A stretch of 64,000 nt of DNA from NCBI GenBank assembly GCA_963721805.1, contig CAVRJY010000001.1, forward strand, positions 128,001 through 192,000, given 5' to 3'. A program made the position numbers and the translations under genes. Position 1 is the stretch's first letter. The number at the start of each line of letters is the position of its first letter. This stretch comes from Nitrospirota bacterium (GTDB taxonomy: Bacteria; Nitrospirota; Thermodesulfovibrionia; Thermodesulfovibrionales; JdFR-86). Of the stretch, positions 4,221 through 27,820 are shown piece after piece. A model generated the notes under the pieces. The model was not told the origin of the DNA and did no database searches. It saw only the letters and a program-made list of their open reading frames with translations.

Positions 4221-4253
4221 GGAGATGCATATGAAACAGGCAGGGACGCTCAT

Positions 4254-4848: not shown

Positions 4849-5093
4849 GCCTCCCGAGCGAGGAAAGCATGGTGCGGGCCCTCATGAGGCAAAAACGCGC
4901 TTATGAGCTGCACTTCAAGACCAAGTCGCCCGAGATCGACAACACGGCCAATACCGCGTACGTCGCGCTGATTAAGATGATCGTCGATATCGTGCGCAAA
5001 TCCAACGAGGCCGGCCCTGAAGGCCGCGACCCCGGCGAGGCCCGCCGCAGCGTGGACGAGGTCTTGAGGACCGAGTATGGGATCGAGCGATAA
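4845..5093 (+). CDS. Short (82 aa) protein in terminase small subunit position
   Basis: ATGA-coupled to gp26-like gene and overlaps terL start; helical, ends EVLRTEYGIER like Mu-type small terminase C-termini; no obvious N-terminal HTH. Confidence 0.55.
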   Translation: MSLPSEESMVRALMRQKRAYELHFKTKSPEIDNTANTAYVALIKMIVDIVRKSNEAGPEGRDPGEARRSVDEVLRTEYGIER

Positions 5094-6345
5094 GTTGATA
5101 CTCCTGCCCTACCAGCGCCGATGGGTCAACGACCGCTCCGCGATGAAGATATGGCTCGCCGCGCGCCAGATCGGCAAGTCCTTCGCCGTGGCGATGGAGG
5201 CCGTGGACGAGGCGCGCGCGGAGAAGTGCGACAACCTCATACTCTCGTCTTCCGAGCGGCAGAGCAAGGAGGTCATGAAGAAGGTCTCCTCGCACCTCCG
5301 CGTGCTGAATGTCTTAAGCGCCGACTCGCTCGACGCCAGCCGCGAAAACCGCGAGGAGGTCGAGCTCCTAAACGGCTCGCGCATCATCTCGCTTCCGGCC
5401 TCGCCGGATACGGTGCGCGGGTTTTCAGGCAACGTCTATCTGGACGAGTTCGCTTTTCATCAGGATTCGCGCGAGATATGGCGCGCGATGTACCCGACCG
5501 TGACGCGCGGCTACAAGGTGCGCATCACCTCGACCCCCAATGGCCGCCTCAATATGTTTTATGAGCTGTATAACGCGGATGCGCGGTTTTCGCGCCACCG
5601 CACGAACATACACGACGCCGTGGCCGACGGCCTGTGCGTCGATATTCCGCTTCTAAGAGACGGGATCGGAGACCCCCAGAGCTGGGCGCAGGAGTTCGAG
5701 TGTGAGTTCGTGGACGAGGCCACCGCGCTCATTACGCTCGATGAGATCGCCTCGTGTGAAGGGGACTGCGGGCAGCTAAAAGATACGACAGGTGAGCTAT
5801 ATCTGGGCGTCGATATCGGCCGCAGCCACGACCTTACGGTCATATGGATTTTAGAGCGCGTGGGCGACGTCCTCTGGACGCGCGGGGTGCGCGAGCTGCG
5901 CAATGCCTCATTCAGCTCTCAGCGCGAGACGCTGTTTTCGCTGATCGAATCCCCAGCCGTGAAGCGCTGTTGCATGGACTCCACCGGCATCGGGGCGCAG
6001 TTAAGCGAGGAGGCCCGCGAGCGGTTCGGCACGCGGGTAGAGCCTGTGCAGTTTACGCTCCAAAGCAAGGAGGACCTCGCCGTGACCGCGCGCCGGGCGT
6101 TTGAGGACCGCACCGTGCGCATCCCCCAGGACGCCACGATCCGGCGCGACATACACAGCGTCCGGAGGTATACGACCTCGGCCGGAAACGCCCGGTTCGA
6201 CGCCAGCCGCACGACGGAGCACGCCGACCGCTTCTGGGCGCTGGCCCTCGCGCTTCACGCCGCAAAGTCCCCGGCCTTGACTCAGCCCCAATACGAGCAG
6301 ATAAGCACGCGGCAGGCTGCTATGCACCGTGCTGGCTGCTGGTAA
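5077..6345 (+). CDS. Terminase large subunit (Mu gp28-like)
   Basis: LLPYQ Q motif, ARQIGKS Walker A, VYLDE Walker B, TSTPNG, nuclease motifs LGVDIG, MDSTGIG, HADRFWALALA. Confidence 0.95.
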   Translation: MGSSDKLILLPYQRRWVNDRSAMKIWLAARQIGKSFAVAMEAVDEARAEKCDNLILSSSERQSKEVMKKVSSHLRVLNVLSADSLDASRENREEVELLNGSRIISLPASPDTVRGFSGNVYLDEFAFHQDSREIWRAMYPTVTRGYKVRITSTPNGRLNMFYELYNADARFSRHRTNIHDAVADGLCVDIPLLRDGIGDPQSWAQEFECEFVDEATALITLDEIASCEGDCGQLKDTTGELYLGVDIGRSHDLTVIWILERVGDVLWTRGVRELRNASFSSQRETLFSLIESPAVKRCCMDSTGIGAQLSEEARERFGTRVEPVQFTLQSKEDLAVTARRAFEDRTVRIPQDATIRRDIHSVRRYTTSAGNARFDASRTTEHADRFWALALALHAAKSPALTQPQYEQISTRQAAMHRAGCW

Positions 6346-6424
6346 ATGCCGATGCAAATCATCGCTTCGCTCGATTTGCATCGGGGCTATAAGGCAAATC
6401 ACATCAGGATAAGGAGGTATTAAG

Positions 6425-7645
6425 ATGGCTGTTAAAGATTCATCAGGAAAGGGCCGGTCCGGCCCCCCGCCATTGGGCGGGGTGGTGGTGGCCCCGCATT
6501 TGGGCTGGCCGACGTACCCCTCGTCCGGGCTCACGCCCGAGCGCTTAAGCGCGATATTCCGCGAGGCCGACGCCGGGGACATCTCACGCCAGATCGAGCT
6601 TTACGAGGAGATGGAGGAAAAGGACGCGCATCTTGGCGCGGTGCTCCAGACTCGCAAGCTCGCTGTGGCCGGGCTTCAGTGGGAGGTCACCCCATCAGGC
6701 ACGAGCGAGGATGCGGCTATCTCAGCCGCACTCGTTAAGGACGCGCTTGCGCATGCTGCCGGGTTTGACGAGGCGATCCTCGCTCTAGTCGACGCCGTGG
6801 GCAAGGGTTTCTCTGCGGTCGAGCTTATCTGGCGAGCGGATGCTGGCCGCGTTGCGCTCAATGCGCTTCGGCCGGTAAGCCAGCGGAGTTTTTCCTTTCT
6901 CGCACCCGATGGCCTGCCCTCTGGCGAGCCGCGCCTTTTGACCGAGGCCAACCCGGTTCGCGGCGAGGCGCTCACGCCCTTTAAGTTCGCGGTTCACGCC
7001 AACATGTCCCGCACCTCATGCCCCCAGCGCGCCGGGGTGCTCAGGCCGTGCGCATGGATGTACCTGTTTAAAAATTACACGCTCAAGGACTGGCTGATCT
7101 TCAACGAGCGGTACGCGATGCCGATGCGCATTGGCAAGTTCGGCCCGTCCGCGTCCGAGGCCGACCGCCGCGTGCTCAGAAACGCGGTCTTCAACTTGGG
7201 CGCGGACGCCGCGGCCGTGATAAGCGAGGGCACGGTGATCGAGCTCCTGGAGAGCCCCGGCAAGGGCGGCTCGGCCGACCTCTACCAGAGGCTCGCCGAG
7301 TACTGCGACGCCGCGATCTCGAAGGCCGTCCTGGGCCAGACGCTAACGACCGAACAGACCGGCGGGACGTACGCCACCGCGCGAGTCCACGAGGGCGTGC
7401 GCGAGGACATCACCGCGGCCGACGCCCGCGCGCTCGAGCGCACGATAACGAGCCAGATCATCAGGCCGCTCGTGGAGTTCAACCTCGGCCCCGGCGCGCC
7501 GCTTCCCCGCTTCAGGTTCCTTATGGCGGAGGAAGAAGACCTAAAGACGCTGGCCGAGACCTACTCGACCTTAAGCGCGATGGGGGTCTCGATCCCTGAC
7601 GCCCACATCCGCGAGCGCTTCGGCATACCCGCAGGAGGCAACTAG
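6425..7645 (+). CDS. Portal protein (Mu gp29 / DUF935)
   Basis: GLTPERL, EMEEKDAHL, ERYAMPMRIGK, ISKAVLGQTLTT motifs; RBS TAAGGAGG. Confidence 0.92.
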   Translation: MAVKDSSGKGRSGPPPLGGVVVAPHLGWPTYPSSGLTPERLSAIFREADAGDISRQIELYEEMEEKDAHLGAVLQTRKLAVAGLQWEVTPSGTSEDAAISAALVKDALAHAAGFDEAILALVDAVGKGFSAVELIWRADAGRVALNALRPVSQRSFSFLAPDGLPSGEPRLLTEANPVRGEALTPFKFAVHANMSRTSCPQRAGVLRPCAWMYLFKNYTLKDWLIFNERYAMPMRIGKFGPSASEADRRVLRNAVFNLGADAAAVISEGTVIELLESPGKGGSADLYQRLAEYCDAAISKAVLGQTLTTEQTGGTYATARVHEGVREDITAADARALERTITSQIIRPLVEFNLGPGAPLPRFRFLMAEEEDLKTLAETYSTLSAMGVSIPDAHIRERFGIPAGGN

Positions 7646-7647
7646 AC

Positions 7648-8610
7648 ATGGACGAAACACTGGTAATGCGCTCTGCCGCGATCGAGGGCGCTCCGGCCGA
7701 GATCCAGGTGATCCCGTTTGGCGGCCACGAGACCACGCAGGGCAGCTTCGTGCTCGACGCCGAGGGGATCAGGCAGATCATCTCAGAGTTCGAGGCGAGA
7801 AAAAACGAGATGGTGATCGACTACGAGCACCAGACGCTCGGGGGCTCCGAGGCCCCGGCCGCCGGATGGATCAAGCGGCTTATAGATAAGGGTGCGGACG
7901 GCCTCTGGGCCTCGGTGCAGTGGACCCCGCGCGCGCTTCAGTACCTAAGGGGCCGCGAGTACCGCTACCTCTCGCCGGTGTTCATGAAGCGCATCGCTGA
8001 CGGCCGCGCGGTGCGCCTGATCAACGCCGCGCTCACAAACCAGCCAGCCATAGACGGCATGGTGCCGGTCGTAAACCGCGCCGCCGTGAACTCGCAAAAG
8101 GAAGGAGGAGGAAAGAAGATGGAAAAGATCATGGAAGCCCTCGGCCTTGATAAGGCTGCAGGGGAGGCGGAGGTCATCGCCGCAATAGGGGCGATGAAGT
8201 CACGCATCACGTCCGTGCTCGACTCTCTCGGGGTCGGGACGGACGCGACGGACCCGGAGCTTTCGGGCACCGTGGCCGCGATGAGACAGGCTTACGAGCA
8301 GCTGCCCGCGATAGCCGCGCGCCTGGCCGAGCTCGAGGCCGCGCTTGGCGGCAAAGAGTCCGCCGGGCTCGTCGAGCAGGCGATGGCCGAAGGCAAGCTC
8401 ACGCCCGCGCAGAAGGCGTGGGCCACGGACTATGCGGCCCGCGACACCGAAGGGTTCCGCGTATTCGTGGCCAAGGCCCCGGTGGTCGTCCCGGTGGCCG
8501 ACGCCCCGAGAGCCGGAGCAAGGAAGGTTCAGGCATTGGACGAGACCCAGCAAAGGGTAAACGCTCATCTCGGCATATCGGCCGAGGCATTCGGCCTTTA
8601 CGGCAAATAG
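7648..8610 (+). CDS. Mu-like prohead protease I (with nested scaffold)
   Basis: VIDYEHQT, APAAGWI, EYRYLSPVF, ALTNQPAIDGM motifs. Confidence 0.93.
   Translation: MDETLVMRSAAIEGAPAEIQVIPFGGHETTQGSFVLDAEGIRQIISEFEARKNEMVIDYEHQTLGGSEAPAAGWIKRLIDKGADGLWASVQWTPRALQYLRGREYRYLSPVFMKRIADGRAVRLINAALTNQPAIDGMVPVVNRAAVNSQKEGGGKKMEKIMEALGLDKAAGEAEVIAAIGAMKSRITSVLDSLGVGTDATDPELSGTVAAMRQAYEQLPAIAARLAELEAALGGKESAGLVEQAMAEGKLTPAQKAWATDYAARDTEGFRVFVAKAPVVVPVADAPRAGARKVQALDETQQRVNAHLGISAEAFGLYGK
8119..8610 (+). CDS. Scaffolding protein (Mu gpZ-like), internal in-frame start in protease gene
   Basis: Strong internal RBS AAGGAGGAGG (8102-8111) before in-frame ATG 8119; helical product with GKLTPAQKAWA; same nested arrangement is known for Mu I/Z. 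Confidence 0.7.
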   Translation: MEKIMEALGLDKAAGEAEVIAAIGAMKSRITSVLDSLGVGTDATDPELSGTVAAMRQAYEQLPAIAARLAELEAALGGKESAGLVEQAMAEGKLTPAQKAWATDYAARDTEGFRVFVAKAPVVVPVADAPRAGARKVQALDETQQRVNAHLGISAEAFGLYGK

Positions 8611-8622
8611 GAGGATCGGCAC

Positions 8623-9030
8623 ATGGCACTCACTTCAGACAGGAACACGCCTCGCCGTGACGGCGAGCTCGTAACTCTCCCGGTCGCGGCCGCAAAACTC
8701 ATCTACGCCGGGTCGCTGGTGGCCAGGGATTCAAGCGGCAACGCCACCCCGGGTGCGGCCGCAACCACGCTTTTGGGAGCCGGCCGCGCCGAGGCGCGTG
8801 CGGATAACTCCGGCGGCTCGGCCGGGGATATCACGGTCGACGTCCGCAAGGGCGTCTTCAGGTTCGGCAACTCCGCCTCCGCGGACGCGATCACGCGCGC
8901 GGACATCGGCGCCAGCTGCTACATCGCCGACGACCAGACGGTCGCCAAGACCAGCGGATCGAGCACGCGCTCGGTAGCCGGAACAGTCTTCGACGTGGAC
9001 TCAGACGGCGTCTGGGTCAAGTTCGAGTAA
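8623..9030 (+). CDS. Capsid decoration/cement-like protein
   Basis: MALTSDRNTPRRDG...ADIGASCYIADDQTV...DGVWV pattern; sits between protease and major capsid. Confidence 0.7.
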   Translation: MALTSDRNTPRRDGELVTLPVAAAKLIYAGSLVARDSSGNATPGAAATTLLGAGRAEARADNSGGSAGDITVDVRKGVFRFGNSASADAITRADIGASCYIADDQTVAKTSGSSTRSVAGTVFDVDSDGVWVKFE

Positions 9031-9043
9031 GGAAAGGACAGAT

Positions 9044-9922
9044 ATGATAATCAACCAGTCAGCGCTTCAGGCCCTGTACAAGGGCTTCAGGACGATATTC
9101 AACGAGTCGTTCGACGCGGTAAAGCCGCAGTACGAGGGCGTGGCGATGGTCGTGCCCTCGACCGTGCGCGAGGAGACCTACGCATGGCTCGGCGCGTTCC
9201 CGTCGATGAGGGAATGGATCGGCGAGCGGCAGGTCAGGAACCTCGACCTGCAGAGCTACAGCATCCGCAACAAGGACTGGGAGGTCACGATCGAGGTCGA
9301 CCGCAACGACCTCGAGGACGACTCGGTAGGCATCTACCGCCCGATCATAGCCGAGCTCGGCCGCTCGGCCGCGATGCACCCCGACGCGCTCGTATTCGGG
9401 TTAATGGGCACCGGGTTTTCCACCGCGTGCTACGACGGGCAGTACTTCTTCGACTCCGCCCACCCGGTAGGCTCCGCCACGGTGAGCAACACCGGCGGGG
9501 GCTCGGGCTCGGCCTGGTATCTGCTCGATACGACGCGCTCTCTGAAGCCTTTCATCTTCCAGTCGAGGCGCGACGTGGAGTTCGTCTCGAAGGACCGGCC
9601 GGACGACGAGCAGGTCTTCATGCGCAAGAAGTACGTCTATGGCGTCGACAGGCGCGACAACGCCGGGTTCGGGCTCTGGCAGCTGGCGTACGGATCGAAG
9701 CAGACGCTGGACGCGGCGAGCTACTCGGCCGCACGCGCCGCGATGATGGCGTACACGGACAGCGAGGGCAAGCCGCTCGGGATCACGCCCAGCGTGCTCG
9801 TCGTGCCGCCTTCTTTGGAGGGCGCTGCGCGCGCGATCGTGACGGCCGAGCGCGACGCCTCGGGCGAGACGAACCCCTGGTTCAATACCGCCGGGCTCCT
9901 CGTGAGCCCGTGGCTTGGGTAG
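9044..9922 (+). CDS. Mu-like major head subunit gpT
   Basis: YAWLGAFPSMREWIGER, DGQYFFDSAHPV, WYLLDTTRSLKPFIFQ, GFGLWQLAYGS motifs. Confidence 0.95.
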   Translation: MIINQSALQALYKGFRTIFNESFDAVKPQYEGVAMVVPSTVREETYAWLGAFPSMREWIGERQVRNLDLQSYSIRNKDWEVTIEVDRNDLEDDSVGIYRPIIAELGRSAAMHPDALVFGLMGTGFSTACYDGQYFFDSAHPVGSATVSNTGGGSGSAWYLLDTTRSLKPFIFQSRRDVEFVSKDRPDDEQVFMRKKYVYGVDRRDNAGFGLWQLAYGSKQTLDAASYSAARAAMMAYTDSEGKPLGITPSVLVVPPSLEGAARAIVTAERDASGETNPWFNTAGLLVSPWLG

Positions 9923-9928
9923 ACCCCG

Positions 9929-10360
9929 ATGCCCTACAGCACCCTTGATGAGATCGTAAAGCTCCTGCCTGAGGCAACGCTTATCGAGCTTACGGACGAC
10001 ACGGGCGCCGGTACGGTCGACGGGGCGGTCGTCGCCGAGGCCATAGCCCAGGCCGACGCGGAGATCGACTCTTACTGTGGGGGGCGCTACGGCGTCCCCC
10101 TCAGCCCCGTCCCCGAGATCGCAAAAAAGCTCTCGGCGGACATCGCGCTCTATCACCTGTATTCGCGCCGCGTGGCCCAGATGCCGGAGGCCCGCAAGGA
10201 CCGCTACAAAGACGCGGTGCGCCTGCTTGAGGGCATCGCCAAAGGCGCGGTCACGCTGGGCGCCGATACGCCCGCTTCATCGGGGCAGCCGGGCACGGCC
10301 GAGACGAACAGGCCGGACGACGAAAACACATTCACCCGCGACTCGATGCTCGGGTTCTAA
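9929..10360 (+). CDS. Head-tail connector (Mu gp36 / DUF1320)
   Basis: MPYST, ADAEIDSYCGGRY, DIALYHLY, RYKDAVRLLEGIAKG. Confidence 0.9.
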   Translation: MPYSTLDEIVKLLPEATLIELTDDTGAGTVDGAVVAEAIAQADAEIDSYCGGRYGVPLSPVPEIAKKLSADIALYHLYSRRVAQMPEARKDRYKDAVRLLEGIAKGAVTLGADTPASSGQPGTAETNRPDDENTFTRDSMLGF

Positions 10361-10419
10361 GAAAGAAGGAGACGCTCACAATGCCTGTAAACGACGCATA
10401 TAAGGCCGGGGCATAGCGC

Positions 10420-12924
10420 ATGTCCATCTCGATAGCCTTCCCGCCCGTCTCGGGCTGGGCCCTTTCGGATCCGGCGAAGCTGCTGCTGGCGGGCAACTCA
10501 AGCCGCATGCAGCTCGCCCTGCTGGACGACTTCGCGAACGGCTCGATGGGCGGGCAGTGGAGCGTGGCGACATCCGGGTACTGGGGCCTCTCGACCACCG
10601 GCTCCATCACGGAAGCAGGCGGCGTGCTCGGCATCTCGCACCCCGGCTCCGGCTCGCAGCAGACGCGCGCGTGGGTGACGCCGAACATACTGTCGGGCGA
10701 CTTCGACATCCAGATAGACGTCGCCTCCTTCACTGGCGGCGGCGGTGACGCAGGGATGAAGTTCGGCTTCTACATCGACGCCGGCAATTACTTTTACCTC
10801 AACGCCTACGGCCCGAACTCGGCCTCTATTGCGTACTTCAGCACCATACGCCACGGAGGCGCCAACACGACCGCCAGCTCGGCGTTCGCCGGAGCCGCAT
10901 CGGGCAGGCTCAGGATAGTGCGCGCCGGGACTGCGGTTACCGTTTACTATTACTCAGGCGGATGGGTGCAGCAGAACTCCTATGCCGGCTGCTCGACGTC
11001 CTCCGGCGCGGTGACGCTCAACGGCTGGTGGACATCGGGGGCGTCATGGAACGCCGCGCTTGACAACTTCACGATAAACAGCGGGGCATACGGGGGCGTC
11101 ATGTTCTGCCCGTCCGATTCCCCCACCGCCGAGAGCCCGTGGATAGCGTTGCCGTGCAAGACGCTCGATGCGAGCGCGGCGGTAGCGGCGTTTGAGAACA
11201 CCCAGGGCGGCTCGGGAAACATAAAGTACCAGTACGCGCTTAATAACGGCTCGTACAACGGCTCGTGGCTTACGAAGTCCGGCCTCAACGGCTCGCTTGC
11301 CTCCGCCTCGATCACGGACCCGGCAAACAGCATCAGGCTCAAGGCGCAGCTCAACAGCGACGGCACTCAGATGGCGGATTTCGCGCCCGGATGCATCACA
11401 GCGGGCGATCTCGATTATCCGGCCTCAGGCGACGTAAAAAACGGCGTGGCGTATGCGCTCGGGCAGTACACCGGGACTTACTCGGGCGGAGGGAGCTGCG
11501 ACTACCCCGCGGTTGAGGACGTGCGCGAGGGCGTAAGTTATAACGGCGGCCTGAGCACAGGGACACTCGACCTGCCTTCGATATCCGACGTGCGCCACGC
11601 GACGGCGTTTGACCACAATACAAAGACCGGCACGGCCTATATCCCGGCCGCGGCGGACGTGCGCTCCGGGACGAACGTGGACGCCACGGCCGGGACTCTC
11701 AACCTCCCGGCAGTGGCCGACGTGCGTGCGGCTACGGCCTTCGACGGAGGCACGAAGACCGGCCTGCTCGATCTGCCATCGATATCCGACGTGCGCCACG
11801 CAACGGCGTTTGACCACAACACGAAGACCGGCACGGCCTATATCCCGGCCGCAGGCGACACGCGCTTCGGCGTCGCCGTCGATAGCGGAAGCGGCAGTTG
11901 CAGGGTGCCGTCAAAGGCCGATGTCCGTGCAGGCGTGGCAGTGGACGTCAGCGATACCGGCCAGATCGACCTCCCGGCCGCATCGGATGTACGAAGCGGC
12001 GTGGCCTATGACCACAACGCCCAGACCGGCACGTACGAAGCACCGGCCTGCGATTACCCGCAGGCCGCGGATGTACGCGACGGAGTCAGTTATGACTTCG
12101 GGGCGCTGACCGGCACGCTGGCAGCCGAGACTTGCGACTACCCGCAGGCCGCGGATGTCCGCGACGGGGTCAGTTATGACCATGGCGGACTTGTCGGCAC
12201 GCTGGCAGCCGGGACTTGCGACTACCCGCAGGCCGCGGACGTACGCGACGGGGTCAGTTATGACCATGGCGGACTTGTCGGCACGCTGGCAGCCGGGGCT
12301 TGCGACTACCCGCAGGCTGCGGACGTACGCGACGGGGTCAGTTATGACTTCGGGGCGCTGACCGGCACGCTGGCAGCCGGGACTTGCGACTACCCGCAGG
12401 CCGCGGATGTCCGCGACGGGGTAAGTTATGACTTCGGGGCGCTGACCGGCACGGCGGCGTTGCGGGGCTCTGCCCCGGCGCAGCTCCAGAGTTTCCGGGA
12501 CATAGAGGCCGCGATCATCTCGAAGCTCAAAAGCGATGTCCCGGCCCTGCGCACGGTCGAGTCCTGGGCCGGTCAGATCGCGGACCGGATAGATTCGCTT
12601 ACGGTGCCGCTTCCGGCCGCGTTCGTTTCATACGGGGGCTCGGGCTTCAGCCCCATAGACGGCCCCTCGCACCGCGAGCAGCCCGCCTTTACGGTGCTCG
12701 TCGCGGCTCGCAGCATGCGCGGCGACGGCTCCGAGCGCACATCGGCAAACGGGGCGTACGGGCTCGTGCAATCCGTGCTCTCGGCGCTCGCCAACGAGGA
12801 CTTCGGATATAGCGGCCTTGAGCGGCTCGCGCCCTCGCGCGTGGCGCTCATAGCGAGCGAGGGCGGCGCGGCTGTATACGGAGTTACGTTTCAGACCGCG
12901 TTTGACACGCAATACAACTGGTAA
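10420..12924 (+). CDS. 834-aa fusion: beta-rich lectin-like domain + 14 fibre-like repeats + C-terminal Mu gp37/DUF1834-like domain
   Basis: Gly/Ser/aromatic-rich N-terminus; repeats P-x3-DVR-x-G-x2-YD-x4-TGT; last ~150 aa (DIEAAIISKLK...VESWAGQ...PAAFVSYGG...GAYGLV) resemble gp37 and occupy its syntenic slot. Confidence 0.7.
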   Translation: MSISIAFPPVSGWALSDPAKLLLAGNSSRMQLALLDDFANGSMGGQWSVATSGYWGLSTTGSITEAGGVLGISHPGSGSQQTRAWVTPNILSGDFDIQIDVASFTGGGGDAGMKFGFYIDAGNYFYLNAYGPNSASIAYFSTIRHGGANTTASSAFAGAASGRLRIVRAGTAVTVYYYSGGWVQQNSYAGCSTSSGAVTLNGWWTSGASWNAALDNFTINSGAYGGVMFCPSDSPTAESPWIALPCKTLDASAAVAAFENTQGGSGNIKYQYALNNGSYNGSWLTKSGLNGSLASASITDPANSIRLKAQLNSDGTQMADFAPGCITAGDLDYPASGDVKNGVAYALGQYTGTYSGGGSCDYPAVEDVREGVSYNGGLSTGTLDLPSISDVRHATAFDHNTKTGTAYIPAAADVRSGTNVDATAGTLNLPAVADVRAATAFDGGTKTGLLDLPSISDVRHATAFDHNTKTGTAYIPAAGDTRFGVAVDSGSGSCRVPSKADVRAGVAVDVSDTGQIDLPAASDVRSGVAYDHNAQTGTYEAPACDYPQAADVRDGVSYDFGALTGTLAAETCDYPQAADVRDGVSYDHGGLVGTLAAGTCDYPQAADVRDGVSYDHGGLVGTLAAGACDYPQAADVRDGVSYDFGALTGTLAAGTCDYPQAADVRDGVSYDFGALTGTAALRGSAPAQLQSFRDIEAAIISKLKSDVPALRTVESWAGQIADRIDSLTVPLPAAFVSYGGSGFSPIDGPSHREQPAFTVLVAARSMRGDGSERTSANGAYGLVQSVLSALANEDFGYSGLERLAPSRVALIASEGGAAVYGVTFQTAFDTQYNW
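12049..12453 (+). repeat. Five tandem 84-bp coding repeats (CDYPQAADVRDGVSYD...)
   Basis: Units start at 12049, 12133, 12217, 12301, 12385; near-identical at nucleotide level. Confidence 0.95.
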
Positions 12925-12940
12925 CGAGGAGAGACAAGAA

Positions 12941-13984
12941 ATGGGCATAAGCGCATCAGGGACCGAGCTTCGGGCGGCGGCCGCGAGGGCCGCGATATGG
13001 GGCACGGCGGTTCAGTGCGGCGCGGCGGACGGGGTGCTCGTCCTTCCGTCGGAGATCAAGAAGACCCGCGAGGCCCTCGCGGAGGACTCGCTCGGCACGC
13101 TGTTTTCGAATTCGTCGGACGCAGGTGCGGTAAAGGTCGAGGGCGAGCTCAAGGCCTACCTGCGCTACGACGGGCTGGACCTCCTGCTGGCGCTCGCGAT
13201 GGGCGCAACCGGAGGGGCTCCGGTGCGGCAGGGGACGAGCGCGGCCTACGGCCAGACGCTTAAGTTAAACGGCTCGCTCGACGGCCTGTTTGCCACGCTC
13301 GCGATCAACAACGGCGTGAACGTCGACGAGTTTGCGTCGGTGAAGCTCAGCGGGTTTCAGATCAAGGGCGAGGCCGGAAAGCCTGTCGAGGCCACGTTCA
13401 GCCTGATCGCGAACGACCGCACGACCGGCTCGACCGTCAACACCACAGCGACGTTCAGCGCGGTCACGGATTTTGAGACATCAAACCGCACCCTGTTCAG
13501 CCAGGCCGTGTTCCGTTGCAACGCCCGCTTTGGCGCGGCGCTCGCCGATACCGACAGGATATACCCCTCGGCCTTCACGCTTAAGTTCGTCAGAAAGCTC
13601 CTTGGCGTGCGCACGCTGGGCTCGGGAGCGGATACGGTCGACGAGCCTTCAAACGACGGCCTGCCGGACTGCACGCTATCGCTGACGTTCCCGCGCTACA
13701 CCGGGGCCACGCACTTCGCGGACTGGGACGCGGCCGCGCCCAAGAAGCTCGACCTCGCGTTTACGGGCGCGGTGATCGAGGGCTCATACCGGCGCGCGCT
13801 GAGGTTTTCGTTCCCGAACCTCGCGTACAAGGGCGTCGAGCTCCCGATCAGGCGCGGCCTGCTCGAGCACCCGGTCGAATTTATATGCCTCGGCACGGAG
13901 CTGGCCTCCTCCGGGATGGACGGGATCATGGAGCCCTTCGGGCTTGAGCTCGTAAACCGCCAAAGCGCGGACGTGCTCGGATAG
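12941..13984 (+). CDS. Tail tube (major tail) protein, non-contractile type
   Basis: ATG 12941 after GAGGAG; beta-rich 347-aa protein after gp37 slot and before chaperones; no sheath gene in cluster. Confidence 0.7.
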   Translation: MGISASGTELRAAAARAAIWGTAVQCGAADGVLVLPSEIKKTREALAEDSLGTLFSNSSDAGAVKVEGELKAYLRYDGLDLLLALAMGATGGAPVRQGTSAAYGQTLKLNGSLDGLFATLAINNGVNVDEFASVKLSGFQIKGEAGKPVEATFSLIANDRTTGSTVNTTATFSAVTDFETSNRTLFSQAVFRCNARFGAALADTDRIYPSAFTLKFVRKLLGVRTLGSGADTVDEPSNDGLPDCTLSLTFPRYTGATHFADWDAAAPKKLDLAFTGAVIEGSYRRALRFSFPNLAYKGVELPIRRGLLEHPVEFICLGTELASSGMDGIMEPFGLELVNRQSADVLG

Positions 13985-13988
13985 GGCG

Positions 13989-14405
13989 ATGGATATCGAG
14001 GCCCTGGAGAGCGACGACTATGCGGTGTGGGTAAGGTTCATGGACGCCGAGGTGCTCGTGCGCCACGTCCCGGCCGGCGAGCTCCTGTCTATCCGGGAGC
14101 GCAGCCTGAGGCGGGCGTGGGACATCTCGAGCGGGGGCCGGCCGGCCGAGGGCATCGATGCGGCCGAGGCTGCCAGGCTGCTGGGCCGGGCGGCGGTGCG
14201 CGGCTGGCGCGGCCTGAGCATGCGCGGCGAGGACTACCCCTACTCGCCCGAGCGGTGCGACTTCCTTATGGCGCGCTGGGCCGAGTTCGGGCGGTTCGTA
14301 AACGAGGCCGCGACGAGCCTTGCGCGCCTCGCTGAAGCACAGCGGAGGGACGAGTCAAAAAACTCCTCTCTCACATCCGGGCCCGGCTCGACTTCCCGGG
14401 TGTGA
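13989..14405 (+). CDS. Tail assembly chaperone (lambda G-like)
   Basis: VRGWRGL...YPYSPE...ESKN motif; follows tube gene; contains A AAA AAC slippery site. Confidence 0.8.
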   Translation: MDIEALESDDYAVWVRFMDAEVLVRHVPAGELLSIRERSLRRAWDISSGGRPAEGIDAAEAARLLGRAAVRGWRGLSMRGEDYPYSPERCDFLMARWAEFGRFVNEAATSLARLAEAQRRDESKNSSLTSGPGSTSRV

Positions 14406-14644
14406 GCTGCGCTTCATGCCGGGAGATAGAGGCATTGGATCAGGTCAGGCCGGACTGCGAGAGCGGCGGCTGCCCGATCCCTCGGGCAACGGGGCGCGGC
14501 ATGCGGGCGGTCGCCCTCAGGTCGATGATAAGGCGGCTTAAGCGGATAGTCCCTGCGGGCGAGGTGCTCCGCCTGATGGGCGCGACGGCGCGTGACCTCG
14601 AGTTGCTGGCCCTGATCGAGGACGAGATAGGAGGCAGGGGATGA
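14357..14644 (+). CDS. Frameshift extension of tail chaperone (lambda GT-like), Cys-rich
   Basis: -1 slip at A AAA AAC (14357-14363) enters open frame KKLLSHIRARLDFPGVSCASCRE...DCESGGCP, identical to ORF 14402-14644. Confidence 0.8.
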   Translation, partial: KKLLSHIRARLDFPGVSCASCREIEALDQVRPDCESGGCPIPRATGRGMRAVALRSMIRRLKRIVPAGEVLRLMGATARDLELLALIEDEIGGRG

Positions 14645-15048
14645 TAAACATCGAAAGCGACATGGACAAGCTCGCGGCCGCGATCGGCACCGGCGCGTTG
14701 GGCGCGATAGTCGAGAGTGTGACCGAAGAGGCAAAGGCGCTCGCCCCTGGCCGCAGCGGCACCCTTAGGGACTCGATAGAGGGATTCATAACCGGCGCTG
14801 GGTCGGGCTCGATAGACGCGGCTGCGCCCTATGCCTCGTTCGTGCACGACGGCACAGGGCTTTACGGGCCGTCCGGTGCGGCATATGCCGTAAGCGCGCG
14901 CATTAAAAAGGCCCTGTGCTGGCCGGGTGCGAGCCACCCCGTGCGCACGGTGACCGTGCGCGGCATCGAGGGCAGGGAGTTCATCACCCGGGCGCTCGAG
15001 GGCCCGGCACCGGATCAGGCAGTGCAAGGGCTGATCGACAGACTATAG
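14641..15048 (+). CDS. HK97 gp10-like neck/tail completion protein
   Basis: APGRSGTLRDSI, YASFVHDGTG, KKALCW, GIEGREFITRAL motifs. Confidence 0.8.
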   Translation: MINIESDMDKLAAAIGTGALGAIVESVTEEAKALAPGRSGTLRDSIEGFITGAGSGSIDAAAPYASFVHDGTGLYGPSGAAYAVSARIKKALCWPGASHPVRTVTVRGIEGREFITRALEGPAPDQAVQGLIDRL

Positions 15049-15061
15049 AGGAGGCAACCAG

Positions 15062-15595
15062 ATGGCTGAAGTGGTTATAAACATCAAGGCCGAGGACGCC
15101 GCGACCCCGGTGATCGAGGCGATCTCGGCGACGCTCGACGCGCTCGGCGCCGGGCTCGCGGCGATGGACAGCGGGCTTAGCAAGACCCTCACGCTCGACG
15201 TCTCGGGCGCGCTTTACGGTGCGGCCGAGGTAGCCTCGGCCATCGGCGCGATACCGGACGTGACCGAGAAGAGCGTGGTCATCGAGTACCAGACGATGGC
15301 CTCTCCGGTGAGGCCGTTTACCGAGGGCATCGCGTACATAAAGGACAAGATGGACTCGCTCCCGACCGAGGGCTCATACACCGTGAAGTATGCGACCGAT
15401 GGCTCACCGGCGCAGGGGCAACCGAATGTGCCGGCGCAGCCGGGGCCGGTCACGTTCTCGCCGGTGATCAACGTCAACGCCCAGGCGGGCGGGGCTGCCG
15501 CGGATGCCGCCTCGTTGGCGCGCTCGCTCGATGAGGAGCTTGCGCGGATGTGGCGGACCAACCGCTCGGAACTTAGGAGGGCAGCCACCCTATGA
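15062..15595 (+). CDS. Very short tape measure-like protein (177 aa)
   Basis: TMP-type N-terminus (VVINIKAEDAATPVI) and C-terminus (VTFSPVINVNA...LARSLDEELARM); syntenic slot; strong RBS. Confidence 0.7.
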   Translation: MAEVVINIKAEDAATPVIEAISATLDALGAGLAAMDSGLSKTLTLDVSGALYGAAEVASAIGAIPDVTEKSVVIEYQTMASPVRPFTEGIAYIKDKMDSLPTEGSYTVKYATDGSPAQGQPNVPAQPGPVTFSPVINVNAQAGGAAADAASLARSLDEELARMWRTNRSELRRAATL

Positions 15596-16332
15596 GCGCG
15601 ATAATCACGGCATGGCAAAACCTGCTCGAAAGCTCAACCGTTACGCTTACGGCCGGCGCGGAGGACCCGGACTACCCGCTATACCGCCTCTGCGACCGCA
15701 ATACCGGGCGCGCGTTTCGCTCAAGCGCAGCCGGAACGCTCGAGATCTCGATAGACCAGGGCGCATCGGGCGCGATGGCCGCAGACCGCCTCCTGATCCC
15801 CTCCGGCCACAACCTTGGCGGTATGACGCTCGACCTGCTCCACTCAGGCGACGGTGTCGCATATATCTCCGCCACGCCGCAGTGGACCGGCGCTGACGGA
15901 GTTATCGAGATGTCATGGGCGCCGCTCACCGCGCGGTACTGGAAGTTCAGGGTCACAGCGCCATCGGTGGCGCCCTCGCTGGGCGAACTGTTCCTGAGCA
16001 GCTCGTACGAGTGGGAGCGCCAGCCAGCGCGGCCCTCCGGCGCGATGGACACGGAGTTTAACGCGCTAAGCGATACGACCTCCTCGGGCGAGGACAGATT
16101 CCTGGTGATGGGCCAGCCCAAGAGGCGGCGCACCTACCGGGTGCCGCGCTGCGGCGCGGCGATGCGCGATGAGATCGAGGCGCTCTATGGCGCATGGGCC
16201 GGGGCATATCCGTTTTGGATGCGGGACCACGAGGGCTCCTGGATATTCGGGCGGATCGTCTCGCCGCCCCAGATAGCGGAGCAGGGGCCCGGAGCATGGG
16301 GCTTCTCGCTCGACTTCAGGGAGGTCTTATGA
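15592..16332 (+). CDS. Distal tail (Dit)-like protein
   Basis: ATGA-coupled to TMP-like gene; beta-rich N-domain (RYWKFRV) and C-terminal GAYPFW...FSLDFREV. Confidence 0.6.
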   Translation: MSAIITAWQNLLESSTVTLTAGAEDPDYPLYRLCDRNTGRAFRSSAAGTLEISIDQGASGAMAADRLLIPSGHNLGGMTLDLLHSGDGVAYISATPQWTGADGVIEMSWAPLTARYWKFRVTAPSVAPSLGELFLSSSYEWERQPARPSGAMDTEFNALSDTTSSGEDRFLVMGQPKRRRTYRVPRCGAAMRDEIEALYGAWAGAYPFWMRDHEGSWIFGRIVSPPQIAEQGPGAWGFSLDFREVL

Positions 16333-16757
16333 ACGTGCTCTCCCGTGTCCGCCCGGTCTATCTCGTCAAGATTACCCTTCAGGGCTCCGGCCAGACGCTG
16401 TACCTCTCGGACCGGAACGTGACTGTGGGCGGGCAGGAGTACGAGGACTATATCTCCGCGGTCACGACCCCGGCCGAGGAGGCCAGGCGGCCAACCAGCG
16501 AATCTTTAAACGCGCCGCTTTCGATCGAGTTTCGAAACGAGCCCTGGCGCGGGTTCAGCCGGCTGATCGAGGCCGGGGCCGAGCACCCCTTTGAGGGCGG
16601 CCGCTGCACGCTCAGCGAGGCGTACATCGACGACGCGGGGATGTCGGGCGAACCCGTGGCGCTCTTTACCGGCACGCTCGACGCCCCCGCTGAGATCGAC
16701 TTGCGGGGTTTTAGTTGCGCGGTCTCCGCGCTCGATTATGCCGCTGACAACAGATAA
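16329..16757 (+). CDS. Baseplate hub N-terminal-like protein
   Basis: ATG 16329 coupled to previous stop; PVYLVKI...TLYLSDR...LFTG pattern. Confidence 0.55.
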   Translation: MNVLSRVRPVYLVKITLQGSGQTLYLSDRNVTVGGQEYEDYISAVTTPAEEARRPTSESLNAPLSIEFRNEPWRGFSRLIEAGAEHPFEGGRCTLSEAYIDDAGMSGEPVALFTGTLDAPAEIDLRGFSCAVSALDYAADNR

Positions 16758-16797
16758 GGGATAGGGGCCACAGGCCCCCAAGGAGGAGCAGGAAAAA

Positions 16798-17250
16798 ATG
16801 GGCATAGCATTTGACCACGTGCAGTACGTATCGGACGTCCGGCTGATGCTTGGCGAGTCGACCTCGACGATCACGCTGGCCGCCCCGTTTACGGACAAGG
16901 AGTTCTACCGCTCGGAGATCGACCCCGGATTCGGCGGGGAGATAAGCTTTATCGACGCGGACCTGTATTTCGACCACTACTCGAGCCTCACGCAGAACGT
17001 CACATGGCGCTGGCAGATCAGGGGCAAGGGCCAGGCCGCCTGGACCGACCTCAATACGCCAAAGACCGAGAGCTGGGCCAGCCAGGCCCAGTCGCGCCTC
17101 CGCGTGATCGTCGAGGCCTCCGCCCTTGACGTCAATACGGCCGTGCCGTTTGAGATCCGCATGCTCGCGACCGCGGCCACGGCGGCCACGGTCTATATCG
17201 TGATCGGGACGTATACGCCCTCCATCCGCGTGCTGGGTACGAGCGCATGA
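16798..17250 (+). CDS. Hypothetical beta-rich virion protein
   Basis: RBS AGGAGGAG/AGGA; host-like codon usage; ATGA-coupled to next gene. Confidence 0.65.
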   Translation: MGIAFDHVQYVSDVRLMLGESTSTITLAAPFTDKEFYRSEIDPGFGGEISFIDADLYFDHYSSLTQNVTWRWQIRGKGQAAWTDLNTPKTESWASQAQSRLRVIVEASALDVNTAVPFEIRMLATAATAATVYIVIGTYTPSIRVLGTSA

Positions 17251-19382
17251 TGCCCGCACCGCTTTCGCGCTCGCTGTATCCCGCGCTCGATCCGGCATCG
17301 GCCGGTGAATACCCGCCGGTCGGGTACGGGAGTGTCGACGGGGTCCCTGCGCCATGCATCGTATCGGGCGCGGCGATGCGGCTCGCCTCCGGGATCGGCG
17401 CGGCCGAGACCTCACTTGAGGTCGATGACGCCCCGGCGCTCCCCTCGCCGCCGTTTACGGTGCAACTGGCAGGGGAGCGGATGCTCGTGGCTTCGGTTAC
17501 GGGCAATACACTAGGCGGGCTCACCCGCGGGGCGGATGGCACGACGGCCTCGGCGCACCCGGCGGGGCGCAGGGTGTTTGAGCTGCGGCCGGAGTACGTA
17601 TATCTGATAAGCCCCGAGCCGATAGCCGCGATACGCGGCGTCGTGGTCGACGGCGTGGCGCAGCAGTCGGGCTTTAGCGCATACACGGGCCGCCCGGGCG
17701 ACGAGCACCCGGACTGGCCGGGCATGGCGGTGGTCGCGTTCGAGGCACAGCTCAGCGCGTCGGCCCAGCGCAATATCTCTGCCGCATCGACCTGCTCGGT
17801 GGACGCAACGATGCTTGAGGCCTCGCACCGCGAGCTCATGGCCTCTGGTGGCGCGGCCCCGGTTTTGATATCAGGGAAACGCGCTCGCCCGGCGTGGGTC
17901 GCATTTACAGGCTCGGGCCCGCTCACGTCTCAGGCGTACTGCGCGTCCGTCCATAATACCGGCGCGTCCGATGCGGTCGTGCGCGCGTTAGTCAAGGTCA
18001 GCGCGACTGACGAGGTACTCGCGACAGAGTGCGTGCTTGTCCAGGCATCCGCGGCGGTGGCGGTCGGGCTCTCGCACGACGGCGGGCCGTGGGAGACCTG
18101 CTTCATGCTGTTCGCTGGCGCTGGCGCATCCACACTGGAGATTAGCGGGATCAAGAAGACCGTTACGGCCGTAAACCCGGCCGAGGGCGACAAGAGCTCG
18201 TCGTATCTGCCTGCGCCTTCTATGCTGTCGTACCGCGGCCTCGGGATCGAACGCACCGCGACGCTCAAGCCCAAGGGCAAGCGGCTGGCATGGGCCGCGT
18301 ACAGCGCGGACTCATTCGGGCCGGTTCTCTGGCAGACCCACCGCGCCGCTGTAGCTAACACCGGCGCGACGGACTCCGTAGTGCGGCTGATCGCATCGGC
18401 CCCAACTGGCGAATGCGCGGCCATGGCCGACTTTACCGTGAGAGCCGGGGATGCCACCACGCTTGAACTCACGCACCCGGGCGGGGGCTGGGACACGATG
18501 AGCAGGGTTGCGGTGCAAAGCGGGATGCTTAGAGTAGATGCGCTCTCAAAGGAGGTCAGGTACGTCACCGGGACCGACGGCCCCTCGGCGGGGTATAGCT
18601 CCACAGCGCGCGCTGTCATAGGCGATGAGGTCACGGTCGACGCCGACTGGTGCTGCGACGAGACTGGCGCGGTGATCGAACGGCCCGACAAAATTATGCG
18701 CCACTTTTTGGTCGAGCGCATGGGGTTTGCGGATACGGACATCGACAGCGCCTCCTTCGCCGCGGCCGACGCGGCGTACGCGGGCTACGTAAGCGGGGGC
18801 TACCGCTTCGGGTTCGTGATAAACGATAAGGTCACGCCGTCCGGGTTCGTGCGCTCACTGGCCGCACAGTGCAGGTCTGTGCTCAGATATGCGCGCGGGC
18901 TCTGGCGGCTCGACGCGGTGCCATCCGCGGCCCCTGCGCCGGTGCGCACGATATCGGCGGGCGAGCTTGCCGGAGAGGGCGCGATGTTCCGGTTTAAGCG
19001 CGTGCCTCTTGAGGATATGGGCAACAGCCTTCGTGCATATTACGGCGCTGTCTACTCAAAGGGCGGCGGCTGGTCGTCCATAGCCTCGGTCAATGACGCG
19101 GGCTCGATAGAAAGGCTCGGTCTAATCACGAGAGAGTTCAGGTTCCCGGCGATACGCGATAAGTCCACCGCAGAGGACGTGCTCGGCCTCATGCTCCTTG
19201 AGCGTGCGGCCTCGCTCCTGATCGTCAATTTCACGGTATTCTACGAACACTTCGACCTGAATGTCGGCGATACGATCTCGATAGACAACGAGCTTTATAA
19301 CGGCGCGCTGTTCTTCATCGAACGCATCGAAAGGCCGGACTCATTCAGGGCGAAAATTACAGCTCGCCAGTGGTGGGGATGA
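17247..19382 (+). CDS. Large baseplate hub/tail tip protein
   Basis: 711 aa; PVGYGSV early motif, IERPDKIMRHFL...IDSASF, FDLNVGDTISI C-terminus typical of phage tail tip proteins. Confidence 0.7.
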   Translation: MMPAPLSRSLYPALDPASAGEYPPVGYGSVDGVPAPCIVSGAAMRLASGIGAAETSLEVDDAPALPSPPFTVQLAGERMLVASVTGNTLGGLTRGADGTTASAHPAGRRVFELRPEYVYLISPEPIAAIRGVVVDGVAQQSGFSAYTGRPGDEHPDWPGMAVVAFEAQLSASAQRNISAASTCSVDATMLEASHRELMASGGAAPVLISGKRARPAWVAFTGSGPLTSQAYCASVHNTGASDAVVRALVKVSATDEVLATECVLVQASAAVAVGLSHDGGPWETCFMLFAGAGASTLEISGIKKTVTAVNPAEGDKSSSYLPAPSMLSYRGLGIERTATLKPKGKRLAWAAYSADSFGPVLWQTHRAAVANTGATDSVVRLIASAPTGECAAMADFTVRAGDATTLELTHPGGGWDTMSRVAVQSGMLRVDALSKEVRYVTGTDGPSAGYSSTARAVIGDEVTVDADWCCDETGAVIERPDKIMRHFLVERMGFADTDIDSASFAAADAAYAGYVSGGYRFGFVINDKVTPSGFVRSLAAQCRSVLRYARGLWRLDAVPSAAPAPVRTISAGELAGEGAMFRFKRVPLEDMGNSLRAYYGAVYSKGGGWSSIASVNDAGSIERLGLITREFRFPAIRDKSTAEDVLGLMLLERAASLLIVNFTVFYEHFDLNVGDTISIDNELYNGALFFIERIERPDSFRAKITARQWWG

Positions 19383-24066: not shown

Positions 24067-25743
24067 TTACCGCTTGCCCATCAGCCGCGCGAGCCCCTCG
24101 GGGTCTACGGCCTCCGCGCGGCGCAGCATCTCCCCGGCGCGCGCCGGATCCCCCGCACGGCTGTACATGAGCCAAAGGTTAAACAGCGGTATTACGGCGT
24201 CGTCGTGGTATGGCGCGCCGGGGATTTCTATGCCCGGCGGAAAGAGCGATACCGCGGCCTCGAAGGCCTCGGCCGCCTTGTCCGTCTCGCCCTCCCGGAT
24301 ATATGCGATCCCGAGGCTGTTAAGCACGTGGACCCTGTTTGCCGGGTTCAGATTGACGTCGCTCTCGGGGCTCAGGCCGGGCGGGAAGAGCGAGACCGCG
24401 CGCCCAAGCGCCCCGGCGGCCCCGGCGTAGTCCCCTGCTGCAAGCCGCGCGCGGCCGAGCTCATCCAGCACTATCAGCTTTTGCGGGCTCTTGCTGGCGG
24501 CATCCTCCCAAAAGGCCACGGGATCGCTATACAGCGAGTTTCGCGCGTAGGTCGCTGCCATCAGCACCAGCACTGCCGCGGCAGCCACCACGGTTACGGC
24601 CTTGCGGTGCGTGCTATGCATAGCGATGGCCGATATCGAGAGCGCGACCCCGGCCAGCGGCAGGTAGAGCCTGTGCTCGAAGATGAGGTCGCCAAGCGGG
24701 ACTATGCTCGACTCCACCGAGAGCGTCAGGTAAAACCAGACGATCCCGAACGCGGCCCATCTTGCCGTCACGGACGGCCTCCTATAAAACCAGACGGCTA
24801 GAGAAAGCAGGCTCAGGTTGACGAGTACCGCGACCAGCACAGGCCACTGGAGAAGGGAGGTATAGAGCGGATAGTCGTAGCCGAAGTTCTGGCTGACGGG
24901 CAATGCTATGAGCCGCATATATGTGAGCAGCACGCGCTCGGACGTCAGGAAGTACGCGGCCCGCCCGATCTCTGAGGTCGCGCTCGCGGCCCCGGCCATC
25001 CCCCTGTTTATAAGCAGCGTGGCCGGGATGACCATCACGACCGCGATCCACGGCAGAAGCCGCGAGGGCCGTACGCTTCTGATCCCACCGAGGAAGCAGG
25101 CATCGATAAGCACCATCGCCGCCGGCAGCGTGAAGGCGGTCTCTTTCGAGCGCGCGGCCAGCAGCACGCATACGAGCGAGAGCGCGTACAGCCGGAGCGA
25201 GCGGCCTCGGCCGGGCTCGAGCCTCGAGCGGACGTACAGCGCGAGCGCCAGCAGGTAGAAAAGCGCGGCCATCGAGGCGAAGCGCTGCGATATGTACGTG
25301 ACCGCCTCGGTCTGGATCGGGTGGACTGCGAACAGGAGCGCGGAGAGCAGGGCCGCGCCCCGGTCTTTAATCAGCATGAGCCCGAGCCAGTACAGGGTGA
25401 GAGCCGCTGCGATATGCACGGCGAGGTTGAGGACATGATACCCGGCCGGGGCCACGCCCCCGAGGGCGTGGTTCAGGGTGAAGGTCGCGAATGCGACGAT
25501 ACGGTCCTGGAAGTGCATGGCAAGGTTCCCGGTGAGTTTAAGCCTTCCGGTGGCTGCGTCAATGAAGCCGCCCCAGCTATTGATCGCAGGATCGCCGGTG
25601 ATGTAGCCGGCGTCGTCCGCGATGAGGGGGGCGTGAAAGGTGTTTGAATATGCGAGCACGGCCGCGAGCGCTATCAGCGCGATGTGCCCGAGCCGCGCCG
25701 AGGCGGGCTTCCCTGTCGCGCTGAGTGGTTCGGCCGATTCCAT
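24067..25743 (-). CDS. TMTC-like GT-C glycosyltransferase with C-terminal TPRs
   Basis: First-loop DD, FAVHPIQTEAVTYI, SKE, FEHRLYLP motifs, multiple TM helices, TPR tail. Confidence 0.85.
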   Translation of the reverse strand: MESAEPLSATGKPASARLGHIALIALAAVLAYSNTFHAPLIADDAGYITGDPAINSWGGFIDAATGRLKLTGNLAMHFQDRIVAFATFTLNHALGGVAPAGYHVLNLAVHIAAALTLYWLGLMLIKDRGAALLSALLFAVHPIQTEAVTYISQRFASMAALFYLLALALYVRSRLEPGRGRSLRLYALSLVCVLLAARSKETAFTLPAAMVLIDACFLGGIRSVRPSRLLPWIAVVMVIPATLLINRGMAGAASATSEIGRAAYFLTSERVLLTYMRLIALPVSQNFGYDYPLYTSLLQWPVLVAVLVNLSLLSLAVWFYRRPSVTARWAAFGIVWFYLTLSVESSIVPLGDLIFEHRLYLPLAGVALSISAIAMHSTHRKAVTVVAAAAVLVLMAATYARNSLYSDPVAFWEDAASKSPQKLIVLDELGRARLAAGDYAGAAGALGRAVSLFPPGLSPESDVNLNPANRVHVLNSLGIAYIREGETDKAAEAFEAAVSLFPPGIEIPGAPYHDDAVIPLFNLWLMYSRAGDPARAGEMLRRAEAVDPEGLARLMGKR

Positions 25744-25805
25744 GTCTTGTGAATAATAGCGCTACGGCCGCCGTAATTACAATAAATACGCGGAGGTGCG
25801 GCCCT

Positions 25806-27524: not shown

Positions 27525-27820
27525 CGTTTATTCATTCGCCGGACGCGGTTGGCATTTATTCCCTTGGGATCATATTAGCAACCGAATATGGCGCAAATGT
27601 GGAAGAAATATGGAAGAAATGAGGAAATCCGGCGGGGCAGCGGGCGGTCATCTTTGAGATGATGGAGATAGACATAAATTTACCTGAACCCGCAAAGATG
27701 CCTTATGCGTTTTGAGTGCCCCGCGGAGAACGTCCCTTCACAGTCCGGCTTTACGGATGCGATTCCTTTGTGTGGGGGGGGAGACCCCTGCCGCGGACCG
27801 CTGGGGTATAATATCCAGTC

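Follow-up and report, generated by a model that had tools for sequence, protein, structure and literature searches.

Can a protein of only 177 residues be the tape measure of a phage tail, and which kind of particle would carry a tail that short? The question is raised by a gene lying at positions 15062-15595 of the stretch of Nitrospirota DNA analysed here (64,000 nucleotides, hereafter the window; its source genome, of 2.78 Mb, is called G000). The initial annotation had read the product as a tape measure protein (TMP) with typical ends and almost no middle, and had deduced a tail of about 25 nm, convergent with the architecture of gene transfer agents (GTAs). The gene as it was described is seen in the sequence: a 177-aa ORF with an ATG start, a good ribosome-binding site (AGAGGAGG) 7 nt upstream, and a stop codon that shares ATGA (15592-15595) with the start of the following 246-aa gene. 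It belongs to a cluster of 20 genes on the plus strand (3824-19382), placed between the genes for a glucose/sorbosone dehydrogenase and for RNase G:

3824-5093, plus strand: DUF5675 protein, two small ORFs (102 and 98 aa) and an 82-aa ORF in the small-terminase slot (Pfam/PHROG)
5077-10360, plus strand: Mu-like head and packaging genes, namely large terminase, Portal_Mu, Mu protease I, decoration protein, gpT capsid and gp36 adaptor (Pfam/PHROG)
10420-12924, plus strand: 834-aa protein, with a repeat-rich N-terminal part of 690 aa and a Mu gp37-like terminator/stopper domain (Pfam)
12941-13984, plus strand: tail tube protein, 347 aa, PF18906 Phage_tube_2 (Pfam)
13989-14405, plus strand: tail assembly chaperone, 138 aa, phrog_313 (PHROG)
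14357-14363, plus strand: slippery heptamer A-AAA-AAC at the end of the chaperone gene, predicted -1 frameshift of gpG/gpGT type (sequence)
14402-14644, plus strand: 80-aa ORF, predicted gpT-like frameshift extension of the chaperone (position)
14641-15048, plus strand: HK97-gp10-like tail completion protein, phrog_5, PF04883 (Pfam/PHROG)
15048-15055, plus strand: ribosome-binding site of the TMP gene, AGAGGAGG (sequence)
15062-15595, plus strand: miniature TMP, 177 aa (homology, gene position and model)
15592-16332, plus strand: 246-aa putative distal tail (Dit) protein, with a CBM32-like N-terminal domain and a weakly Dit-like C-terminal domain (model)
16329-17250, plus strand: two tail-tip ORFs, 142 and 150 aa (position)
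17247-19382, plus strand: 711-aa hub/tail-tip protein, PF13550 Phage-tail_3 at residues 553-695 (Pfam)

Along the cluster, the TMP gene follows the tube and chaperone genes (the latter with its predicted frameshift) and precedes the distal tail and hub genes, with the gp10-like gene standing between chaperone and TMP. The head genes are of Mu type (PF06074, PF10123 and PF10124), and no sheath, integrase, transposase or replication gene was found by Pfam and PHROG searches over 3824-19382. The A6 run at the slippery position of the chaperone gene is present in all nine loci checked; for the frameshift we assume the mechanism of lambda gpG-T. In GC3 the TMP gene (0.85) is similar to its neighbours (0.69-0.91 over the 20 cluster genes), and the genome holds one copy only. 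Tube and hub gave no PDB sequence match, and no internal duplication was detected in the tube.

The label “Dit-like”, originally given to the downstream gene, stands in part. The ATGA coupling is as described; the label itself rests on a modelled N-terminal domain resembling CBM32 (Z 10.8, rmsd 3.1, 125 aligned residues) and on sub-threshold leads of the C-terminal half to clusters of DUF6711, Phage_min_tail and DUF2460 (0.79-0.80), which we take to be Dit families, and the gene can be called Dit-like only weakly. Among 19 titled records of this gene, 18 are from Nitrospirota and one is from an “uncultured bacterium”. In several relatives it carries in-frame insertions of 150-250 residues (L031:2433-3617, L047, L048 and L049), and in many the 142-aa tip ORF is fused to the hub.

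Other observations concern the neighbourhood. The gp37-like domain at 10420-12924 is joined in frame, without an internal Met, to the 690-aa region, which has many “DYP.A.DVR.GV.YD” repeats and no Pfam match; in relatives gp37 is a separate gene of 140-155 aa, sometimes placed after a 300-375-aa homologue of the N-terminal part. The 834-aa protein may be a neck-attached fibre. A cinA-like gene adjoins the cluster or lies near it in three other genomes (G005, G007 and G025; L019:18488, L030:4719 and L092:1380). Further along the window (24067-29437) there are three neighbouring TPR-ended proteins of 538-572 aa, followed by adenylate kinase and ATP sulfurylase. One sequencing run (X1) gave short near-identical contigs on the portal, capsid, hub and RNase G genes, with the TMP gene almost uncovered, and was left out.

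The 177-aa protein has no direct Pfam or PHROG match, and thus its identity as a TMP rests on homology to long proteins. By blastp, residues 4-174 align to residues 507-679 of a 683-aa protein in the TMP slot of L074 (E 7e-25), and residues 35-110 align to a 1016-aa slot protein (L052; 51% over 78, E 9e-18), which shows a second, weaker match at its MAEV start. A 754-aa slot protein and a 1095-aa protein from a genome locus match likewise, and viral-contig proteins in the same slot (526-1042 aa) match the query through their C-terminal part. A search of 1.84 billion proteins with a profile built on 13 short homologues retrieved 157; among the 43 best matches (E<=1e-30), 40 have 157-453 aa, a shortness partly biased by a profile made from short sequences, and the long ones match mostly via their C-termini. 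Half of the long matches scanned (15/30) hit PHROG “tail length tape measure protein” families (E<1e-8), and do so over their N-terminal two thirds, the region absent from the 177-aa protein; the other 15 matched no PHROG family. The 709-aa slot protein of a second element in genome G006 carries PF10145. As far as homology goes, these matches confirm the protein as a TMP that joins the N-terminal motif to the C-terminal ~140 residues of TMPs of 660-1170 aa, the middle having been removed. The initial description of two TMP-like ends with almost no middle is borne out, and the possibility, raised with it, that the protein is unrelated to TMPs is contradicted by the same alignments.

Other searches were negative or weak. 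A word-based search over 8000 candidates retrieved no longer homologue, a false negative in view of the blastp and profile results. Pairwise hhalign of the short profile against three long slot proteins gave probabilities of 38, 19 and 0.7. Fold searches with the TMP model returned nothing meaningful (best Z 3.2), and the PDB sequence search with the TMP alignment A4 only coiled-coil noise. In the ESM Atlas, the TMP led to unnamed viral clusters at 0.93-0.94 and, at 0.85, to PF09718 (26% of members).

Within the protein, residues 1-39 form the N-terminal MAEV strand-helix, residues 40-67 a single 28-aa strand-helix repeat, and residues 68-102 a conserved ASPxRPFxEG segment with a helix; a Pro/Gly linker, an FSPxINI strand and a C-terminal helix with an RSELRR end follow. 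About 110 of the 177 residues are conserved tip-side anchor. The model (pLDDT 79, pTM 0.38) is an extended chain with short helices (14-34, 48-62, 86-99, 146-165 and 170-176, the longest of 21 residues) and strands between them; in the monomer the C-terminal helix is predicted confidently. The long helical core typical of siphovirus TMPs is absent from the protein, and hydrophobic windows above 1.6 occur in none of seven short TMPs and in four of eight long ones.

How long a tail would such a protein specify? Three measured systems offer a calibration. The tube of RcGTA measures 5 x 3.83 = 19 nm in a whole tail of 49 nm (PMC7296036); in JBD30, a replicating Mu-like siphophage, the 1158-aa TMP gp46 goes with 45 rings and 180 nm (PMC11445458); and in TP901-1 internal TMP deletions shorten the tail linearly by 0.145 nm per residue, in an engineered series whose shortest measured tail is 65 nm and whose zero-tail extrapolation falls at 127 residues (PMC5099701). 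The profile of residues 40-67 finds tandem copies 27-29 residues apart in many homologues: spacings of 27 (18 times), 28 (6) and 29 (14) account for 38 of 64, and 11 others are steps of 36 residues that lead to the following, related segment. A repeat of 27-29 residues spans 3.9-4.2 nm at 0.145 nm per residue, about one ring, the rise being 3.83 nm in RcGTA and 4.0 nm in JBD30. TMP length varies partly by this one-ring repeat, of which the 177-aa protein holds one copy.

For 177 residues, the rule of 0.15 nm per residue gives 26.6 nm, the JBD30 scaling 27.5 nm, the RcGTA scaling (tube plus Dit) 18.8 nm and the TP901-1 regression, with its 127-residue intercept, 7.2 nm; the first 67 residues only would give 9.7 nm. 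RcGTA is the nearest system for calibration, and the 0.15-nm rule overshoots its tube (32 nm against a real 19 nm). The tube would most likely be of 2-4 rings (10-19 nm), within a calibration range of 7-27 nm; neck and tip would add to the length of the whole tail, as they do in RcGTA. The initially proposed tail of ~25 nm is thus very short as claimed, but the figure is too high or lies near the upper bound.

We consider it probable that this mini-TMP, encoded on a Mu-derived cluster kept by the host, is the ruler and plug of a non-contractile tail of 2-4 rings on a putative GTA-like particle. That it acts as a short ruler is highly probable, because of the homology to long TMPs, the gene position, the retention together with the tube and the purifying selection (the last two are detailed below). 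A gene-transfer role of the particle is, judging from gene content, an evenly balanced proposition. In the proposed assembly, three TMP copies would anchor in the hub by their C-terminal helix, and the chaperone would coat the N-terminal ~70-100 residues; tube rings would stack until the TMP N-terminus meets the gp37 terminator, the domain that would cap the tube and join it to the Mu-type head. Since the TMP has no membrane-spanning stretch, an inner-membrane channel is not expected and DNA would be released in the periplasm, from which the host ComEC/DprA could take it in, as described for RcGTA delivery. Genes for ComEC and DprA, both common, are present in G000.

In an order-wide survey of 301 genomes, 24 gave a hit for the Dit-like gene and 18 for the tube, while 16 matched the TMP profile. 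Within the family of the cluster (11 genomes), tube and TMP are present in the same six genomes and both missing in the other five, which are 99, 91, 90, 89 and 68% complete; the Dit-like gene occurs in all 11. Outside the family, G036 has a tube gene without chaperone or TMP. In tubeless loci, the adaptor or gp37 is followed by the Dit-like gene and the head genes are intact (L027:4443-5626, L028:3784-4961, L029:5918-7101 and L054:4061-5238). On one contig, gp36 stops short of the Dit-like gene by 14 nt in G001 and by 8 nt in G009; gp37 and the Dit-like gene overlap in G025, and the layout of G009 recurs in viral contig L054. For the tubeless pair G009/L054, dN/dS is 0.13-0.23 over capsid, gp36 and Dit-like gene. 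Against the preferred reading, the tail tube is dispensable or decays in some lineages, since five of 11 genomes lack tube and TMP and the cluster of G007 is a remnant with no terminase match.

Where other loci have the tube-chaperone-TMP block, G010, G007 and G008 have a gp10 gene with a serum-amyloid-A-like domain fused to it (L018:6588-7951, L030:3046-4355 and L095:3161-3805). The domain in G010 is PF00277 (E 1.5e-10), and a 192-aa membrane-type gene comes after the fusion in G010 and G007. The short-tailed particle could be a weapon, a decoy or a PBSX-like DNA-release device and no GTA, the TMP still being a short ruler: the fusion in these three genomes looks like a cargo cassette, and the tail tip carries what the model suggests is a carbohydrate-binding domain. 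Against this, the genes for terminase, portal, protease and capsid have stayed intact, with selection acting on them (capsid dN/dS 0.13, one pair), and there is neither a sheath nor a membrane-spanning TMP segment to puncture cells. We regard this explanation as unlikely.

The reading as a short ruler on a putative GTA-like particle relies also on the relatives. The nearest proteins have 179 aa (79% and 71% identity), and TMPs in the same slot in three other genera of the family have 172 (G005), 186 (G006) and 207 aa (G002); in a second family, whose capsid differs, they have 183 (G077), ~240, 245 (G122), 279 (G013) and 279 aa (G057). dN/dS is 0.18-0.44 in all nine short-TMP pairs (0.19-0.37 in the six unsaturated ones), and that of the tube is lower (0.15-0.17 in both pairs). 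In all three TMP pairs containing G000, dS is near saturation (1.1-2.8), and selection on the G000 copy is therefore inferred mainly from its relatives. A recent deletion, which the initial annotation had proposed to check by comparing TMP lengths across orthologous clusters, is rejected, since nearest relatives and other-genus orthologues are short and dN/dS is well below 1; against this stands G004, whose TMP in the slot has 630 aa.

Could the cluster instead be a dead prophage in slow decay, and the 177-aa ORF a functionless deletion remnant? The losses are stepwise, as decay would produce (no tube or TMP in five of 11 genomes, the G007 remnant, the G036 tube without chaperone or TMP). However, none of the 20 ORFs is interrupted and their coupling is tight, all nine loci checked keep the frameshift site, and the deletion retains exactly both functional ends across several genera, at ~50% identity and with dN/dS well below 1, which makes a remnant very unlikely.

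TMP-like genes are not always single. In G004 the slot TMP has 630 aa, and copies of 314 and 339 aa lie elsewhere. Clusters of G004, G003 and two contigs (L023, L078, L077, L051 and L103) have 3-4 TMP-like genes each, of 94-630 aa; a small membrane-type ORF on the reverse strand precedes several of these genes, as though a cassette had undergone duplication. A small element in G003 (L076:330-6619) encodes a replication protein O, an integrase and a terminase 59% identical to that of the window, as well as the 150-aa tip gene and a 169-aa mini-TMP; with no capsid or tube on the contig, it is satellite-like. It is highly improbable that the mini-TMP acts as a decoy, sequestering the tail chaperones or tips of Mu-like phages that invade and so ruining their tails, a role which the extra copies outside the slot (3-4 each in G003, G004, L051 and L103) and the 169-aa copy of the separate integrase-bearing element would suit, but against which stand the single G000 copy, in the canonical slot and coupled to the Dit-like gene, and the TMP being kept with the tube in 6/6 family genomes and absent with it in 5/5.

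The AU test rejected one common origin for the tail modules with short TMPs (p 3e-111; 9 versus 20 rows, at least 5 changes), although the rejection is perhaps driven by the short/long sister pair of G013 alone and perhaps reflects recombination. The short-TMP tail modules are not one clade, and thus there has been either repeated shortening or recombination of tail modules with prophages.

For the preferred reading, a short ruler on a host-kept GTA-like particle, the distribution of the Mu transposase is also relevant. MuA was not found in G000 (94% complete): five MuA queries find each other and not this genome. MuA was detected by protein queries, PF09299 searches being uninformative, with no match even in controls. 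Among the genomes compared, which are kin and not independent draws, MuA was found in one of 11 of the cluster family (G006, whose second element, with the 709-aa TMP, lies on another contig), in none of five of the second family and in four of five of the control set. Five elements with MuA/MuB on the TMP contig have TMPs of 855, 1095, 1014, 1046 and 749 aa; three more long-TMP loci (719, 812 and 878 aa) are other prophage types, one of them with a primase-like gene, and two further ones (737 and 1113 aa) were left out of the prophage classification. G006 and G013 hold one short-TMP and one long-TMP element apiece. G004 is the exception: MuA was not found, yet the slot TMP has 630 aa.

The groups {G001, G004, G009}, {G008, G010} and {G000, G002, G006} are common to the element tree (concatenated genes) and the RpoB tree, while G005 and G003, the latter with a different, mosaic capsid, are placed otherwise; second-family elements form their own clade. 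The trees were built in “quick” mode, contig-split elements were assigned by gene order, and one single-gene tree is poorly resolved. On this basis, the cluster tree appears to follow the host tree largely. The flanks of the cluster are host genes, but other ones in other genera. Since the flanks vary, the G003 capsid differs and the G005 placement differs, inheritance is not purely vertical. Outside the window, at G000:C1:321456-322836 and ~175 kb from the cluster, divergent genes for a repressor (HTH and S24) and a Mor activator are orthologous (65% and 45%, respectively) to the pair heading the G005 cluster; this relocated pair likely regulates the cluster.

Traits of GTA type are therefore present: a phage-derived structural cluster in which no replication, integration or transposition genes were found, and host-like inheritance with purifying selection, with G003, G005 and the variable flanks as exceptions. 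The proposed convergence with GTA architecture is supported at the level of the genome by the lack of a detected transposase, the host-like tree and the selection; one relative without a detected transposase, G004, has a 630-aa TMP in the slot.

RcGTA is a host-encoded siphovirus-like particle, and its TMP g11 (Rcc01694) consists of a 113-residue helix, 83 residues of strand and loop and a 20-residue C-terminal helix (PMC7296036). The short length and the helix-strand-helix layout are shared (PMC7296036), whereas the present TMP is shorter (177 aa) and its helices are broken by strands. The head of Mu type (Portal_Mu, gpT), the PF18906 tube and the Nitrospirota host also differ, and the present particle is predicted from genes. 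The cluster does not have head and tail genes of RcGTA type, and no sequence link to RcGTA was found; we take the RcGTA head genes to be of HK97 type. Periplasmic DNA delivery in the style of RcGTA would fit a TMP without membrane segments, and RcGTA already provides an example of a domesticated particle with a short TMP.

JBD30 resembles the cluster in combining a Mu-like head with non-contractile tail genes, and in the core of its baseplate the TMP trimer makes a coiled coil with its last ~33 residues (PMC11445458). Its TMP is a proposed membrane channel (PMC11445458), whereas the 177-aa TMP lacks the hydrophobic segments needed. Compared with the TP901-1 series, the present gene is a natural, selected deletion near the 127-aa intercept; infectivity of TP901-1 needed 154 N-terminal and 60 C-terminal TMP residues and the hydrophobic region (PMC5099701), more than the 177-aa protein has, which weighs against the preferred reading. 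A helix-sheet-helix plan is also shared by the R4C TMP, whose helix has 517 residues (PMC10276861). FpGTA of Faecalibacterium prausnitzii, experimentally found to package host DNA and having no visible tail, is likewise a particle operon of phage origin that has no replication genes and is retained by its host (PMC12946183); its proteins, in contrast, are of short-tailed-phage type, and no tape measure is mentioned for it (PMC12946183).

More tentatively, and with clearly less than even credence for the proposal as a whole, the domesticated Mu-like particles of the order might form a series, natural and under selection, from long-tailed prophages (TMPs of 700-1100 aa), through tails of 2-4 rings (170-310 aa, in one-ring steps of 27-29 aa), to tubeless particles whose head adaptor would dock directly on the distal-tail/hub complex. 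A siphovirus-to-short-tail transition would then have accompanied GTA conversion repeatedly, and the present gene would lie close to the shortest ruler that still works. A description of this cluster was not found in the literature searched, mostly titles and beginnings of abstracts, and neither were its Mu-derived setting, this host group, a one-ring repeat or a series ending without a tube.

A natural near-minimal TMP together with a one-ring repeat unit makes the minimum length of a siphovirus tail directly testable, and so too the division of a TMP into ruler and anchor parts. The association of long TMPs with a transposase and of short ones with its absence, which two genomes each show internally, provides a genomic marker by which domesticated particles can be recognised outside Alphaproteobacteria. 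Should the particles indeed transfer DNA, uncultured Nitrospirota would possess a gene transfer agent derived from Mu, of which we found no report in the literature searched.
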